Shown: positions 9,435-56,777 of the stretch, in pieces
How the letters are laid out: the number at the start of each line of letters is the position of its first letter
Position numbering within the stretch: position 1 is the stretch's first letter
Source: an uncultured Gammaproteobacteria bacterium
GTDB taxonomy: Bacteria > Patescibacteriota > Microgenomatia > Levybacterales > UBA12049
Reading direction: 5' to 3'
Length of the DNA: 64,000 bases
Assembly: GCA_964512695.1 (NCBI GenBank)
Contig: CAZEJU010000004.1
Location: 12,656-76,655, forward strand
Notes under the pieces: generated by a model
Seen by the model: only the letters and a program-made list of their open reading frames with translations
The model's database searches: none
Told to the model about the DNA's origin: nothing
Translations under genes and position numbers: made by a program

Positions 9435-11192
9435 TTATAATGTTTGCTCTTGCCACATTTTTGCAAAAATATGTTTCTTTTTCAGTAATGCCTCGAAGCT
9501 ACCTTCTTCTTTTATCTCTCCATCCTGCATAACAAGAATTTTGTCCATTTCTTTAATTGTAGATAAACGGTGTGCAATTACTATCGCAGTACAAGTTCCG
9601 AATGCTTCATGTAACGCTTCTTGAATCTGCTTTTCTGAATGAACATCAAGATGCGATGTTGCTTCATCTAATAACAAAATTTCTGGTTTCCTATAAAGTG
9701 CGCGTGCTATACCGACACGTTGACGTTGCCCACCTGAGAGTTTAATTCCTTTTTCTCCTACTAAGGTATCTACTCCTTGAGGTAATTGGGAAATAACATC
9801 TTCTAGATGAGCAGTTTGTATGACAGACATAAGTAACTCTGGATCTTCTTTCTGGCCTGGAACTGCTGTAATAGTGATATTATCTTTTAATGACATATTA
9901 AATAATTCCGTATCTTGTAAAACGACTGATACATTATCGATATATGACTGGCGTTTTATAAGTTTTAGGGGAACATCATCGAAGAATATCTCGCCTTCAT
10001 AGGTTTCATAAAGATCCATAAGTAGTTTAAAAAGCGTTGACTTTCCAGAACCAGAGATGCCTACAATACCTATTTTTTCACCTCTCTTAATAGTGATCGT
10101 TATATCACGGAGTACATCCTGAGTGTTATACATGAATTTAACATTTCGTATATGAATTTTTTCCCATGTGTCTGGAAAATTTAGTTGAGATTTCAATTTT
10201 TCAGGATTTTCAATTTCAGGCCTTGTATTGAGGATAGCACGTACTCTTCCAACCCAAATTTTCGAAATCACTATATCCTGAGTCACATCCATTAACTGCC
10301 AGACAGATTCTCCCATCCGCTGAAATAAAGTGACAAACAGGATAAGTAAACTGACATTATAAAATCCATTTAGTATCCCATAAATAATAAACCCTACTGC
10401 AGTCACTTCAAAGACACTGTAATAGAGATTTAATATACCGCTTTGCACTCTAAACCAAAAAATTCGTTTTCGGATTTCATCCACAAGTAATACAATTTTT
10501 TTTAAGATAACTAAAGAAATGTTTTTATCGATTGCTAAAGCTTTTATAGTACGAATATTGTTTAACCCTTCGAAAGTTATCCCTCCAAGATCTTCATCTT
10601 TCTGACTCGCACGTTTTTCATAATAAGATGCTCTACCTAGTAACATCACTCCAATAGTATAAAAACTAATCATAAAGAATAATAAAGCAAGCCCAATAGC
10701 CATATTTTGATTAACAAAAATTAAAAAAATTCCAAAAGTATTTACTACTACTTCAATAAAAACACTGAATATTTTTCTAATTATTTCGTTCATGCCATCT
10801 CTACCCCTACTAATTCGTTTAAATTTATTACCGCTGTTTTCAATTTCTTGCCATGATAAATCTAAGGCGAATATGTGCTTGAGACAGTCCCGATAGATAT
10901 CTAGTCCGGCCTGTTCTGCTACTTGAAATCCATAGTATTTTGCTAATTCTTTTGAAACACTCCTGTACGTGATTGCAAAAAGCCAAAAAAATAATAACTG
11001 CATTACAGATAAAAAAATGTCTTGATCTCTATTGGTGGTTAATAACAGAATAATTTGACTTAATGCAAAAGCAGGATATAATCTGGCGAGATCACTTGTG
11101 AGACGGAAAAAAAACGCCAGAAGGAACTTTACCCGGTAAGGTTTTACATAAAAATAAATGTCGTGAATGAATTGCGAATATGAATATGACAT
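9435..11192 (-). CDS. ABC transporter, fused permease/ATP-binding protein (MsbA/exporter type)
   Basis: 585 aa. Six-TM N-terminal half, Walker A GISGSGKST, signature LSGGQRQRVGIARAL and Walker B ILLLDEATS. Confidence 0.85.
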   Translation of the reverse strand: MSYSYSQFIHDIYFYVKPYRVKFLLAFFFRLTSDLARLYPAFALSQIILLLTTNRDQDIFLSVMQLLFFWLFAITYRSVSKELAKYYGFQVAEQAGLDIYRDCLKHIFALDLSWQEIENSGNKFKRISRGRDGMNEIIRKIFSVFIEVVVNTFGIFLIFVNQNMAIGLALLFFMISFYTIGVMLLGRASYYEKRASQKDEDLGGITFEGLNNIRTIKALAIDKNISLVILKKIVLLVDEIRKRIFWFRVQSGILNLYYSVFEVTAVGFIIYGILNGFYNVSLLILFVTLFQRMGESVWQLMDVTQDIVISKIWVGRVRAILNTRPEIENPEKLKSQLNFPDTWEKIHIRNVKFMYNTQDVLRDITITIKRGEKIGIVGISGSGKSTLFKLLMDLYETYEGEIFFDDVPLKLIKRQSYIDNVSVVLQDTELFNMSLKDNITITAVPGQKEDPELLMSVIQTAHLEDVISQLPQGVDTLVGEKGIKLSGGQRQRVGIARALYRKPEILLLDEATSHLDVHSEKQIQEALHEAFGTCTAIVIAHRLSTIKEMDKILVMQDGEIKEEGSFEALLKKKHIFAKMWQEQTL

Positions 11193-11265: not shown

Positions 11266-11437
11266 TATAGGTAAATATTCGAAAGATCTGGGGGAGTTGA
11301 GCGCTTCCGCAAACATAGTGACCTACTACATTAGTATTTTTACATATATCCTACGTTTGTCTTACTTTCTTAAATACGGTAAAATATGCTACAAGCAACT
11401 ACTATTAGCCATCTGCTATTAGCTATTTGTCAGTAAC

Positions 11438-11510
11438 GGCCCCATCGTCTAGTGGCCTAGGACGTCAGGTTCTCATCCTGAAAACCGGGATTCGACTTCC
11501 CGTGGGGTCA
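11438..11510 (+). tRNA. tRNA-Glu (anticodon CUC)
   Basis: I folded it by hand. Acceptor GGCCCCA/TGGGGTC, D-arm CGTCTAGTGGCCTAGGACG (as in E. coli tRNA-Glu), anticodon stem TCAGG/CCTGA with loop TTCTCAT (CTC at 34-36), variable AAAC, T-arm CGGGA-TTCGACT-TCCCG. CCA is not encoded. Confidence 0.8.
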
Positions 11511-11538
11511 CTTCGGCAAGCTCAGTGCAAGCACATAT

Positions 11539-11829
11539 ATGGTTAACGCAATACCATGGTTTGTATATATGCTTCTTTGCGATGGTAAAACTTTCTATAT
11601 TGGTATAACTAATGATATTCCTGTTAGATATAATGACCACAAAAAAACCGGCTCATTCTGTATCGAACGAACCGGTTTTTATATATATTGGACAGATAAC
11701 TTTCTTCAGCCCATGAGCCTGTCCTTCTCAAGGACTGGAGAAAGGAGCGGATATACTCTTCCACTCTTGTTCATTTACTTTCCTCACTCCACGATTTTTA
11801 ATCATGATTTGGGGGAAGGGAGCGTTTGA
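11539..11829 (+). pseudogene. GIY-YIG nuclease-family (UPF0213/YhbQ-like) gene, apparently disrupted after about 35 codons
   Basis: The N-terminus FVYMLLCDGKTFYIGITNDIPVRYNDHKK is a clean GIY-YIG motif. The expected GAKYTRGRGPW... continuation is missing. The reading frame runs straight into the GC-rich segment that begins near 11700. Confidence 0.4.
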
Positions 11830-12193
11830 CTCACCCCTTACCTTTGACTCTCCGATGTTACATCGGAGGAATCCCTTGCGGGATTTGAAACCATATTTGG
11901 ATACACGGATTACTCCATGCACCTTAACCTCTCTGCCCGCTACCTGATACGGATCGGGCTGGTTTCTGGTCCTTATTTCTAAGAACCTTGGAGAGGTGCT
12001 ACCAGTATCGGCTGCTTACGCTTATGGCTCATCTCACTGGTTTAAGTAAGCCATAGGCGTCTGACGGTCACCCGGCAGAATAACTCTATTCAGAGTCAGA
12101 GAGCGTTTGTTACGCTGAGGCCTTACGGCATCTCAGACCCTATATCACAAGGGTGCTTTTCGCAGTACTCTCAGGCTGTATTTGGCAGATTAT

Positions 12194-12640
12194 CTAAAAT
12201 TCAATGTCGAATTTGATAACCTGCTGGAGAATCTCCTCGTCAGTCAATCCACCCACGGTCAAACCGCGGAGGGAAGCAACTGCTCGAACATCCTCTCCAC
12301 TCCAGGAAGCATAATACTGCTTTACTTCCTGGTATCGATCCGGCTCTACAGCTGTGGAAACCGGCTCCTCCAGACTGATACTGGGATTAAGACCATGGGT
12401 CTTCCCCCCTCCATACCAGTACCAACGGTCGCAGTATACACCGCGCTGAAGGTGGGAGTGGTGACCCCCATATGGCGAATGATTACGACGATACAACTCC
12501 GTCGCACATTCGTCGCACAGCCACACCCCACACGTCCATACCACTCGGTCGCGGTGGAAGTATCGCCACTTCACCCGTCGGCCGCATCCCCACTCGCAGA
12601 GAATTGGGGATCCTTTATCTGGACCGCTGCCGGTAGGCAT
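12194..12640 (-). CDS. Cys/His-rich small protein with an HNH-like zinc-finger pattern, encoded inside the GC-rich segment
   Basis: ...CEWGCGRR...WTCGVWLCDECATELYRRNHSPYGGHHSH... contains H-x2-P-x-GG and flanking Cys pairs reminiscent of HNH/His-Me finger nucleases, with an acidic C-terminus. A fully overlapping plus-strand ORF of similar length is low-complexity and probably a shadow. Coding status is uncertain. Confidence 0.3.
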   Translation of the reverse strand: MPTGSGPDKGSPILCEWGCGRRVKWRYFHRDRVVWTCGVWLCDECATELYRRNHSPYGGHHSHLQRGVYCDRWYWYGGGKTHGLNPSISLEEPVSTAVEPDRYQEVKQYYASWSGEDVRAVASLRGLTVGGLTDEEILQQVIKFDIEF

Positions 12641-12678
12641 ATGTAGATGAACAAAAGACACATAAACAGTCTATAGAG

Positions 12679-12918
12679 ATGAATAAATATCTTACTGAGG
12701 TTACAAGAGATACACTTGAGAATTGGCAATCAGAGTTTCTTCAACTGATCTGTCAAGTAGCTGGTCTAGCATTTCTCTGGCATATTGGCTCACCACAATC
12801 AAAAGAAGGAGATGATCGGAAAGAAGAAAAACTTGATGCAATATTAAAAAAGTTAAGTGGAAAAGAAGGGGAGAAACTAATCACTTCGTTAGATAAAAAG
12901 TATCCGAGAAAAGGTTGA
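12679..12918 (+). CDS. small hypothetical protein (79 aa), charged C-terminus
   Basis: ORF only. It lies between the GC-rich segment and pyrD, with no recognisable motif. Confidence 0.25.
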   Translation: MNKYLTEVTRDTLENWQSEFLQLICQVAGLAFLWHIGSPQSKEGDDRKEEKLDAILKKLSGKEGEKLITSLDKKYPRKG

Positions 12919-12995
12919 TAATGTCTTCGGAGGCGGAGTAAGCTACTACAGACGAACATTCACTGACACTATGCGTATCTATTCTTTTAAATAAC

Positions 12996-14138
12996 TTACC
13001 TTATATTTTTTGAACCCACTGCTTCTGCGACATGACTGAATCCATCCTTTTTTAATAATTCTACCAATCGAAGATTTATATCCGCTATTAGCTGAGGGCC
13101 TTGGAAAACCATACCAGTAATTAGTTGGACTAATGACGCTCCTAATGTAATTTTCACATATGCATCTTCTGCGCTGAATACACCACCGCAACCGATAATG
13201 ACAAATCGTTTTTTATAGTTCTTATACGCTAAGGCAATCAACTCATTCGAGCGATCAAACGTAGGTTTCCCACTGAAATTTCCCCTGGGAAACTTCGCAA
13301 CTTCACTAGTGACTAAAGACGGATCTTTTCTGTTTTTTTGTAAATTTCCGAAAATTATGCCTGCGGGAGAATGCTTCGCAATTACTTTTAACATAGCGAG
13401 AACTTCTTCATTGTCTTTTTCAATCGGCATTTTTATAAACACCGGACGGGATAAACGTAACATATCAACTTCTTTCAGTAATTCTTCTAACTTTCTAGGT
13501 GGGTAAAAAGTAACATCACCGTATAAGTTCGGACAACTAATATTTAATTCATAATACGAATGATGCAAAGGATAAGATTCGAATGTTTTAAATGAACGAA
13601 GAATATCCACAATACTCTCTTCTTGATCTAAAGCAACTGTATTTGTTCTTCCTACGCTTATTCCTACAGGAATTTGAAAATACTGATGAGACAATAATTT
13701 TGCGACATGTGTAGCTCCATCATTTTTAAAGCCTTTATTTACCATTAGTGATTTAGATTTCGGTAGCCGACCTAAACGAGGCTTTTTATTACCTCTATAT
13801 GGCAAATATGTAATAGTACCAACTGTTTGAAACCCAAATCCTACAGATGGTAAAATATTTGTTAATTGAGCCTGATAATCAAAACCCGCAGCTAGGCCTA
13901 TCGGATTTTCAAATTCTATTCCTGCAATCCTTTGCTCCAACACTTTATGCTTATATTGAAAAGCATAAGCAAATACCGTCCTTATCGGAGAGAAATGACC
14001 TAAGAAGTTTCCAGTTTTTGTCATGCGGTTATGCACCGTCTCTGGATCTATAAGAAAAAATAAAGGTTTTAATAGATACGCATACGCAGTTTTCGATAAA
14101 AAAATACAGCTTTTTTTAAAAAACAATTTCATTGGCAA
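12996..14138 (-). CDS. pyrD: dihydroorotate dehydrogenase (quinone), class 2
   Basis: FENPIGLAAGFD, GFGFQTVGTITYLPYRGNKKPRLGRL and GIIFGN motifs, with the N-terminal membrane-associated extension of class 2 DHODH. Confidence 0.8.
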   Translation of the reverse strand: MPMKLFFKKSCIFLSKTAYAYLLKPLFFLIDPETVHNRMTKTGNFLGHFSPIRTVFAYAFQYKHKVLEQRIAGIEFENPIGLAAGFDYQAQLTNILPSVGFGFQTVGTITYLPYRGNKKPRLGRLPKSKSLMVNKGFKNDGATHVAKLLSHQYFQIPVGISVGRTNTVALDQEESIVDILRSFKTFESYPLHHSYYELNISCPNLYGDVTFYPPRKLEELLKEVDMLRLSRPVFIKMPIEKDNEEVLAMLKVIAKHSPAGIIFGNLQKNRKDPSLVTSEVAKFPRGNFSGKPTFDRSNELIALAYKNYKKRFVIIGCGGVFSAEDAYVKITLGASLVQLITGMVFQGPQLIADINLRLVELLKKDGFSHVAEAVGSKNIR

Positions 14139-14193: not shown

Positions 14194-14850
14194 TTAATGA
14201 AGCTCAGAAGTCAACTCAGATTCTAGCCCTTCTATATCGATAAACATAGCATTATTTTTCGAAAAACTAACAAACCCTTTATTTTTTAGTTTTTTCATCT
14301 CCCGACTTACTGTCTCCCTTGTAATACCTATATGTGAAGCCAACTCTTTCTCTGTAATAGTAATTGCAGCTTTACTCTCATGATCTGTTTTGTCACCGAA
14401 ACGTTTAGCATAAATGAGTATTTCGTTAATAAGTCTTCGGTAAGCCTGACCTGATTTAAGATAAGCCATGCGAAGTAATAAACCATCAATACCGCTATAG
14501 ACTCTACGTAACAAATCAAATAAAACATCTGGATTATCCCACAAGAATGTTAAAACAGCTTCTTTAGGCATCCTCCACACTTCTAGATCATTTATAGCCT
14601 CGAAAAAATATTTATTTTTTGTGCTATTGACAGCCCACGACATGGGGAAAAAGGAGTACGGTTTAAATATATTAAGAACGAGTTCATCGCCGTTTTCTGA
14701 AATACTGTACATTTTTACAGTACCCTGCTTTAGAAAAAAAATACCAGCTGGTTCTTCATCAGCTCGAATAAGAACTTCACCTTTTTTAAAAGTTTTATGC
14801 TGTCCGGTCGTAAAAAAGTTTTCTATTTTAGATGAAATTGTTTCGTCCAT
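14194..14850 (-). CDS. Crp/Fnr-family transcriptional regulator
   Basis: N-terminal cNMP-binding beta-roll (GEVLIRADEEPAGIFFLKQGTVKMY). C-terminal HTH ...LASHIGITRETVSREMKKLKNKGFV. Confidence 0.8.
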   Translation of the reverse strand: MDETISSKIENFFTTGQHKTFKKGEVLIRADEEPAGIFFLKQGTVKMYSISENGDELVLNIFKPYSFFPMSWAVNSTKNKYFFEAINDLEVWRMPKEAVLTFLWDNPDVLFDLLRRVYSGIDGLLLRMAYLKSGQAYRRLINEILIYAKRFGDKTDHESKAAITITEKELASHIGITRETVSREMKKLKNKGFVSFSKNNAMFIDIEGLESELTSELH

Positions 14851-56651: not shown

Positions 56652-56722
56652 TGCCAAGTCGTCTAATGGTAGGACAACGGACTCTGAATCCGTTTATTCT
56701 GGTTCGAATCCAGGCTTGGCAG
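56652..56722 (+). tRNA. tRNA-Gln (anticodon CUG)
   Basis: Folded by hand. Acceptor TGCCAAG/CTTGGCA (7 bp, perfect), D-loop AATGGTA, anticodon stem ACGGA/TCCGT with loop CTCTGAA (CTG at 34-36), T-arm TCTGG-TTCGAAT-CCAGG, discriminator G. Confidence 0.75.
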
Positions 56723-56777
56723 CTCAGATATATCAAACTGTATCAGTTCTTTTAAATAACTGATATTCTTATAGTTT

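Follow-up and report, generated by a model that had tools for sequence, protein, structure and literature searches.

The 64,000-nucleotide stretch of Patescibacteria DNA analysed here (the window; GenBank contig CAZEJU010000004.1, positions 12,656 to 76,655) contains, beside a tRNA-Glu gene, about 1 kb of sequence with a composition unlike that of its surroundings. Where did this segment come from, and how did it come to lie between two host genes? The account that we prefer, and to which we give about an even chance, is that it is a captured fragment of foreign DNA that was joined illegitimately, and that its contents are the tail end of a transcription unit in the donor, comprising the 3' part of a gene, a structured RNA and a terminator. 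A preliminary description of the locus, made from the sequence alone, had reported that the GC content jumps from about one-third to about one-half and back, and a sliding-window check bears this out. The mean GC content of the 64 kb window is 34.9%, whereas the 994 bp of the segment have 50.3% and its flanks 32-35%; in 200-nucleotide (nt) windows the value moves from 0.33-0.38 to 0.46-0.60 at about 11700-12700 and then down again. With 300-nt windows, this island is the sole stretch in 64 kb that lies more than 2.5 standard deviations over the mean of 0.349. The rise itself was thus described correctly, but the foreign stretch stops at about 12618-12636 and not at 12660. The GC scan and the neighbouring tRNA gene also support the earlier statement that the segment is compositionally foreign and tRNA-proximal.

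11643-12636, minus strand: the whole foreign segment, defined by composition and by no similarity in related loci or in phage, plasmid and viral collections.

The left boundary lies within the remnant of a GIY-YIG gene that belongs to a tRNA-linked cassette:

11438-11511, plus strand: tRNA-Glu gene (anticodon CTC), which anchors the GIY-YIG cassette (Rfam tRNA model, 55.3 bits; ARAGORN).
11511-11533, plus strand: conserved left-end linker of the tRNA-linked GIY-YIG cassette (CTTCGGCAAGCTCAGTGCAAGC), abutting the tRNA 3' end.
11539-11645, plus strand: GIY-YIG gene remnant of about 35 N-terminal codons (Pfam PF01541); the open reading frame (ORF) as called extends to 11829 through foreign sequence.

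Of the 78 positions of the GIY-YIG profile, the ORF at 11539-11829 matches 2-41 (E 2.2e-6). The N-terminal GIY...YIG strands are present and profile positions 42-78 are unmatched, so that the domain is incomplete. Across its first ~35 residues the remnant is 71% identical to the homologues P0126 and P0127, and past about residue 40 the alignment with relatives breaks down. At the nucleotide level, identity with the related cassettes L084 and L085 is high through CACAAAAAAA (about 11645) and then collapses, and homology to the full-length relatives ends at about 11645-11660. The C-terminal half had already been described as missing, and the break as coincident with a hairpin at 11643-11680. Both observations stand, the former since the match stops at position 41 and full-length relatives have 100-104 amino acids (aa). 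Neither the C-terminal half (REKQLKGWSR.KK in the subfamily) nor the cassette 3' end motif was found anywhere in the window, and no second copy of the tRNA-Glu 3' end was found with up to 3 mismatches allowed. Just the left third of the cassette survives in the window.

The right flank is, as judged from homology, a truncated DUF6766 gene that the preliminary description had overlooked:

12618-12637, no strand assigned: right junction zone (tblastn with the full-length DUF6766 homologue P0007; DNA alignment with loci L082, L083 and L086).
12637-12918, plus strand: DUF6766 gene remnant (Pfam PF20554; 2680 homologues).

DUF6766 homologues (n = 2680) are typically 122-126 aa long. In the tblastn alignment, residues 34-125 of P0007 correspond to 12637-12912, and the window encodes residues 34-125 (AYVDEQ...) as 92 in-frame, stop-free codons from 12637. 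A TAG stop stands directly upstream of 12637 and is preceded by unrelated GC-rich sequence, while the first in-frame ATG is at 12679, and the ORF that it opens (12679-12918) matches DUF6766. The first 33 codons, a hydrophobic N-terminal segment, were not found elsewhere in the window by tblastn. What is left of the gene is ~80% identical to its homologues, and it represents either a recent truncation or an N-terminally shortened protein that is still made. Twelve nucleotides at 12620-12631 (TGGACCGCTGCC) resemble the host consensus TGGACCACTGCn and may be a microhomology or decayed host sequence. Because of this resemblance, and because clear DUF6766 homology begins at 12637, the right junction is placed within 12618-12637.

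Since the C-terminal half of the GIY-YIG gene and the cassette 3' motif are absent from the window, the segment replaces host sequence and does not merely interrupt it. The earlier wording, that the segment "interrupts" the GIY-YIG gene, is therefore not retained: there is no downstream continuation in the window, and the segment stands in place of the GIY-YIG 3' half and the 5' end of the DUF6766 gene.

The junctions could be artefacts if a fragment from a GC-richer organism had been mis-joined into a Patescibacteria contig, an alternative that the preliminary description had itself raised. The abrupt jump in composition, the orphan content and the origin from a metagenome assembly would all agree with such a chimera, and the left junction is without independent confirmation. 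However, a contig from an independent assembly (Logan contig L081, run SRR8893623) is 100% identical to the window over 12029-13308 and spans the right junction; because it reproduces this junction, a chimera is unlikely there. Moreover, the contig returns within ~1 kb to a remnant of a host gene in the same orientation, and two chimeric joins would be needed. We regard misassembly as very unlikely.

Within the segment, three parts are predicted on the minus strand:

12194-12640, minus strand: orphan ORF, 148 aa from ATG (155 aa from GTG at 12661), from ORF calling, AlphaFold and shuffles.
11705-12193, minus strand: putative structured non-coding RNA region of ~490 nt with 48% GC, from folding energy and GNRA hairpins.
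11636-11680, minus strand: predicted intrinsic terminator of the minus-strand unit, with a 16-bp stem at 11643-11680 and then U7 at 11642-11636, at the left junction.

The last of these parts is the hairpin at which the GIY-YIG homology breaks. Its minus-strand form is a 16-bp stem without interruptions and with a 6-nt loop (-25.3 kcal/mol, z -6.5), directly followed by a U-tract of seven, which is the form of an intrinsic (Rho-independent) terminator. The plus-strand version is mismatched and reaches just -14.6 kcal/mol, and relatives have no hairpin at the equivalent position. The hairpin is thus read as the putative intrinsic terminator of a minus-strand transcript belonging to the inserted unit.

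The left edge of the segment falls exactly at the terminator U-tract and abuts a host A-rich run, and the other end cuts the ORF at an arbitrary point. This geometry would fit priming by a plus-strand A-run on the U-tail, and the segment could accordingly be a cDNA that copies the last part of a foreign, terminated transcript, with the host A-run as primer, and that was sealed into a break, similar to a 5'-truncated retrocopy. However, the locus has no known reverse transcriptase, the same coincidence can come from A/T microhomology during ordinary end joining of DNA, and the uptake of foreign DNA is simpler than that of foreign RNA. Capture through RNA is considered very unlikely.

The evidence for the structured RNA is thermodynamic and motif-based and comes from one sequence. 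For the 506-nt stretch from 12195 to 11690 on the minus strand, the minimum free energy (MFE) is -190.5 kcal/mol compared with -139.9 kcal/mol for shuffled sequence (z -7.43), whereas the plus strand of the same stretch has a z of -3.67. Minus-strand 200-nt windows across 11600-12100 give fold z values between -5.4 and -8.0, while the local background averages -0.04 +/- 0.97 and never goes below -2.7. The MFE structure contains 5 GNRA tetraloop hairpins, at 12126-12123 (GUAA), 12071-12068 (GUGA), 11979-11976 (GAAA), 11913-11910 (GUAA) and 11879-11876 (GCAA), compared with a mean of 0.14 and a maximum of 2 in 300 shuffles, and none on the plus strand. A closing helix is predicted between 12177-12164 and 11722-11710. 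Additionally, a model-free count finds 3 GNRA hairpins with uninterrupted 6-10-bp stems, which makes this the densest bin of the window. With an energy far under that of shuffled controls and a stronger signal on one strand, the predicted minus-strand RNA has the hallmarks of an evolved RNA that belongs to no Rfam family. All four of the hairpins listed in the preliminary description are present, and the fold z values relative to the local background argue that they are not due to chance. Its suggestion of an unrecognised structured RNA is likewise supported, and the strand, which it had left open, is the minus strand.

The Rfam comparison that had been proposed for both strands was carried out with cmscan (Rfam 15, 4227 families) on 11400-13000 and 11630-12210. 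No family matched at E ≤ 10 in either interval, the output at that setting consisting of sub-threshold matches alone (13-22 bits) to unrelated families; at the gathering threshold, the whole window returned the two tRNAs. As a positive control, the same search scores the group I intron of L084 at 61.1 bits. RNase P, tmRNA, signal recognition particle RNA and rRNA fragments were rejected by the absence of Rfam matches (gathering threshold; E ≤ 10 locally), and ARAGORN also found no tmRNA. ROOL (RF03087), GOLLD (RF01998), OLE and raiA were rejected by the absence of covariance-model matches at E ≤ 10. A group I intron (RF00028) was rejected on the same threshold for both intervals; on the minus strand, the flanks are antisense to the GIY-YIG and tRNA genes and to DUF6766, so that there is no same-strand host gene for an intron. 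A group II intron was rejected by the absence of an Rfam match (RF00029 domain V/VI, D1-D4) and of a reverse transcriptase domain, and Patescibacteria are reported to be without group II introns (PMC13011429). A class C group II intron lying behind a terminator was rejected on the wrong-strand structure and the absence of a GUGYG 5' end and of domain V. An IS200/IS605-type element was rejected given an ORF with no Pfam match (Y1_Tnp, OrfB_Zn_ribbon/RuvC, IscB) and no HEARO RNA match, and a rod-like viroid or Obelisk-type fold was rejected since folding predicts a domain of several hairpins in place of a rod. Inspection by eye alone revealed no matching integron cassette or attC boundary motifs.

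The RNA, and not the fragment as a whole, could be what was selected. In this alternative, a functional ncRNA (non-coding RNA) gene of a new class was laterally acquired, is now expressed and kept by this lineage of Patescibacteria, and the ORF is incidental or accessory. GC-rich intergenic islands in AT-rich genomes are a classic signature of structured-RNA genes. The structure is extreme and strand-specific, GNRA loops are enriched, the terminator is intact, and the GC content has not drifted towards the 35% of the host. Nevertheless, the promoter scan found nothing upstream of the minus-strand unit, just one copy is known, with no homologue in 1.4 Mb of related loci, and a recent arrival explains the unchanged GC content equally well. 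We consider selection for the RNA possible but unlikely. It is also conceivable, and we put it forward with corresponding reserve, that the RNA represents a class of large, GNRA-rich "ornate" RNAs not described before, of which it is the first member to be sighted and which reaches Patescibacteria on mobile or phage DNA, with the upstream Zn-ribbon/helical protein as its partner.

The coding capacity of the upstream part bears on what kind of unit was captured. Long ORFs are present on both strands (154 aa on the plus and 155 aa on the minus strand), in agreement with the earlier report of ORFs above 150 aa. None of 2000 dinucleotide shuffles was fully open on both strands, and this openness fits real coding DNA with its antisense shadow. 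AlphaFold, run on the single minus-strand sequence, predicts three helices at residues 100-148 with a predicted local distance difference test (pLDDT) score of 72-91, and pLDDT is below 50 at residues 1-99. The plus-strand product is below 50 nearly throughout, with six residues at 50-70 and none at 70, and the minus-strand product is thus indeed the more protein-like of the two, as had been proposed. Across the ORF, the RNA-fold z is unremarkable (-2.1 to +0.4). Overall, there is moderate evidence that the minus-strand ORF is coding. The host-derived DUF6766 codons GCA TAT, read as their reverse complement, supply its ATG, and because the ATG lies in these codons, the frame is open right to the junction. 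No Shine-Dalgarno sequence was seen upstream of the ATG, and a promoter scan of the minus strand detected none upstream of it. An intact gene fits these features less well than the 3' part of a donor gene, which is what the ORF probably is.

Homology searches leave the ORF an orphan. Among ~15 billion proteins there was no convincing homologue, the only match being an identical or near-identical copy from the same sample. A word-indexed search of 5.8 billion clusters returned the ORF itself alone, and phmmer against 1.8 billion representatives gave three weak matches to repetitive proteins. The ORF had no match in Pfam (148- and 155-aa products, E ≤ 10), PHROGs or PDB sequences (E ≤ 10), and in NCBIfam a spurious MotB match alone (E 0.028). 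Neither tblastn against phages and plasmids nor a back-translated scan of viral contigs returned anything. One of the weak phmmer matches, the metagenomic protein P0005 (270 aa), is built from five ~45-aa modules in tandem (motif P-x-C-x-C-G-C-G-x3-4-W...RW...GH), every one of which matches the beginning of Pfam DUF6527. The CxCGCG..W module of P0005 resembles the N-terminus of the orphan ORF (LCEWGCGRRVKW); the orphan ORF itself is without a DUF6527 match.

The product had been called HNH-like. A Cys cluster (C15-x3-C19...C42-x2-C45) precedes a C-terminus of three helices, and AlphaFold predicts strands at 21-29 and 32-40 and a helix at 43-52, all in the low-pLDDT region. A treble-clef or beta-beta-alpha-metal finger could accommodate the spacing C15-x3-C19...H29...C42-x2-C45, but no Asn is in register, and the likeness to either is a predicted resemblance. 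The H-x2-P-x-GG motif that had been pointed out is present (H-S-P-Y-G-G, residues 54-59), but it is placed behind both Cys pairs, which is not the order of an HNH domain. The top Foldseek match in the PDB is T4 endonuclease VII (E 2.3) and matches in BFVD have E ≥ 0.23, none of them significant; among the weak fold matches, SAP-domain proteins superpose best, and Rho-N- and HeH-domain proteins are also listed. With no HNH match in Pfam, NCBIfam or PDB sequences at E ≤ 10 and no significant fold match, the HNH assignment is not upheld.

These results also bear on the proposal of an autonomous selfish element, in which an HNH-like homing-endonuclease gene with a structured RNA (for instance, a degenerate intron of group I or group II, or a nuclease with guide RNA of the IS200/IS605 kind) invaded the tRNA-proximal cassette. 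A size of ~1 kb and a small Cys/His-rich ORF next to a structured RNA are reminiscent of an intron with a homing-endonuclease gene, the C-x3-C...H29...C-x2-C pattern can be threaded onto a beta-beta-alpha-metal finger, and the top PDB fold match, although non-significant, is a T4 endonuclease. However, no nuclease profile matches at E ≤ 10 and fold matches have E > 0.2; no group I, group II, HEARO or other Rfam match was obtained, even though the control intron scores 61 bits; and group II introns are reported to be absent from Patescibacteria (PMC13011429). The minus strand offers no host gene to splice from, and no second copy was found in protein and viral-contig searches. There is no recombinase ORF between 11500 and 13000, and no terminal repeats or target duplication of the segment were found. 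Given these absences, and an ORF without its own start, a Shine-Dalgarno sequence or a detected promoter, the "small selfish mobile insertion" of the preliminary description does not hold up, and we consider a selfish element very improbable. A tRNA-targeting integrative element was rejected as well, there being no integrase gene and no repeat of the tRNA 3' end on the far side. The segment looks like a captured fragment and not like an autonomous element.

Searches for a donor or an unoccupied site covered several collections. Neither blastn of the segment against phages and plasmids nor four exact 20-26-mers against viral contigs returned a match, and blastn and nhmmer against 165 fetched loci (1.4 Mb) matched just the DUF6766-derived edge. 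For the RNA, no homologue was found in any of these collections (phage and plasmid, viral contigs, 165 loci). Scans of GTDB genomes and JGI metagenomes anchored on the adjacent dihydroorotate dehydrogenase (DHODH) gene revealed no relative closer than 63-68% and no synteny, and no synteny was seen on the inspected contigs around the closest DUF6766 homologues.

Taken together, the capture of a foreign fragment would have proceeded as follows. The donor would be GC-richer than the host, either a phage or mobile element or another bacterium, and the fragment would have been joined into the chromosome with deletion of ~300-400 bp of host sequence, namely the 3' half of the GIY-YIG cassette, a spacer and the first 33 codons of DUF6766. 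The captured tail would consist of (i) the 3' portion of a gene whose protein has a Cys cluster of Zn-ribbon-like type and ends in a small helical part that possibly binds nucleic acid, (ii) an evolved RNA of ~490 nt, highly structured and with many GNRA tetraloops, and (iii) a canonical intrinsic terminator. Joining may have been illegitimate or microhomology-mediated, the candidate microhomologies being the A-run on the left and TGGACC.CTGC on the right, and the break perhaps arose in or near the mobile GIY-YIG cassette. The fragment would then be a passive relic and not autonomous, and its RNA may have had a structural or catalytic role in the donor.

Several points weigh against this account. 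No close relative with an empty site was found in the collections searched, nor a donor or homologue, so that "foreign" rests on composition and on the truncated flanks. The left junction is without independent assembly support, four exact-product look-ups having found nothing on record. The length of the ORF alone is not significant, as 4.9% of shuffles of the ORF part are fully open in one frame. The case for RNA structure, being thermodynamic and motif-based and drawn from a single sequence, is without covariation. Finally, the undrifted GC content and the stop-free DUF6766 remnant fit a recent event, but they fit equally well with selection that keeps the RNA.

The recipient site belongs to a family of ~400-bp cassettes that encode a ~100-aa GIY-YIG protein and lie directly behind different Patescibacteria tRNA genes (Glu, Arg, Gln and an intron-containing tRNA):

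11511-11645 of the window: cassette remnant behind tRNA-Glu.
L003, 10976-11423, minus strand: cassette behind tRNA-Arg.
L038, 1719-2119: cassette behind tRNA-Gln.
L084, 297-703: cassette behind an intron-containing tRNA.
L085, 431-870: cassette with a linker that follows a 9-nt remnant of a tRNA end.
L030, 5754-5772, minus strand: solo linker with no gene.

The cassettes open with the conserved linker CTTCGGC(A/T)AGCTCAGTGCA, which directly follows other tRNA genes in L030, L038 (one base different) and L084. At the far end of the cassette in L084 and L085, the linker recurs as a partly inverted copy (GTTTACCCTG(A/G)AGCA...GCCGAAGG), and a 17-19-nt direct repeat of the tRNA 3' end stands behind the cassette in L003, L038 and L084. 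By these features the family looks like a mobile element targeting tRNA gene 3' ends, and no description of it was found in the literature searched. The foreign fragment landed in or beside a mobile homing-type cassette. In L085, the GIY-YIG gene (468-770) has an in-frame TAA after codon 60, with homology continuing past the stop (…REKQIKGWSRAKK…); decayed cassettes therefore occur elsewhere too. In L084, a group I intron (32-267; Rfam 61 bits) lies inside a tRNA gene missed by ARAGORN, and the cassette directly follows. A recent report describes tRNA genes of Patescibacteria that group I introns conceal (PMC13011429), and this case matches it.

The wider setting appears to be that of a host chromosome. 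The DHODH gene lies at 12996-14138 on the minus strand, and its best relatives are metagenome-assembled genomes of Patescibacteria/Candidate Phyla Radiation (CPR) bacteria (Levy-, Roizman- and Gottesmanbacteria); because their identity is just 63-68%, the lineage is poorly sampled. We take the ORF at 9435-11192 to be ABC-transporter-like and that at 14194-14850 to be a Crp-like regulator, both from the look of the sequence and without a profile check. From sequence, these neighbours and the dehydrogenase look like ordinary host genes. The window has a second tRNA gene, tRNA-Gln (CTG) at 56652-56723; the GIY-YIG linker motif was not found behind it and occurs once in the window. In 31 fetched Patescibacteria loci there are 32 GC-rich islands of 400-1300 bp with a GC content at least 0.12 over the locus median (for instance, L057 10551-11850, L121 5201-6200 and L104 101-1000). 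None of these islands has sequence similarity to the segment, and they are possibly tRNA clusters, other RNA genes or foreign DNA.

How Patescibacteria, which are dependent on other cells and whose genomes are tiny, gain and lose DNA is poorly documented. If the segment was captured as proposed, the locus would be a clear case of foreign DNA overwriting portions of two genes at a tRNA-linked homing-type cassette, with both junctions placeable to within ~20 nt. If homologues of the RNA exist, it would be the seed of a new class of large RNAs, and a new ornate class would be comparable in kind to ROOL, GOLLD and OLE; should there be none, it is an orphan relic and its consequence is limited.

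How the locus relates to known systems can be judged part by part. With ROOL, GOLLD and OLE, the RNA shares a length of several hundred nucleotides, many hairpins with GNRA tetraloops, a stability far above that of shuffled sequence and a GC content that is high for an AT-rich genome. ROOL and GOLLD often occur close to tRNA genes and are often carried by mobile or phage DNA. In contrast to these RNAs, the one in the window has no Rfam match, is known from a single copy, and lies directly downstream of an ORF with its own terminator. Group I introns carrying homing-endonuclease genes are common in the tRNA and rRNA genes of Patescibacteria. The segment resembles them in its ~1 kb size, in combining a small ORF with a GNRA-rich RNA and in its tRNA-proximal, endonuclease-rich neighbourhood, and a genuine intron does occupy the tRNA beside the sister cassette of L084; however, it has no RF00028 match, is not inside a minus-strand gene and has no recognisable endonuclease domain. 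Compared with HNH/His-Me finger nucleases such as T4 endonuclease VII, the ORF product is similarly small, its two Cys pairs flank a predicted beta-hairpin and helix, and H29 ends the first strand, but it lacks a profile match or significant fold match and an Asn or second His in register, and it continues for ~100 residues past the second Cys pair. With the tRNA-linked GIY-YIG cassettes, the window shares the linker and the 35 N-terminal codons (L003, L038, L084 and L085), but not the 3' half, the right-end motif or the 17-19-nt tRNA repeat. Laterally acquired fragments are a known kind of feature, whereas the RNA is unclassified. Among known systems, "filler" DNA captured at breaks shares with the segment an atypical composition, the truncation of the genes on either side, possible microhomology at the two junctions and a lack of mobility genes; the segment differs from it in that the captured piece carries an unusually structured RNA and an intact terminator.

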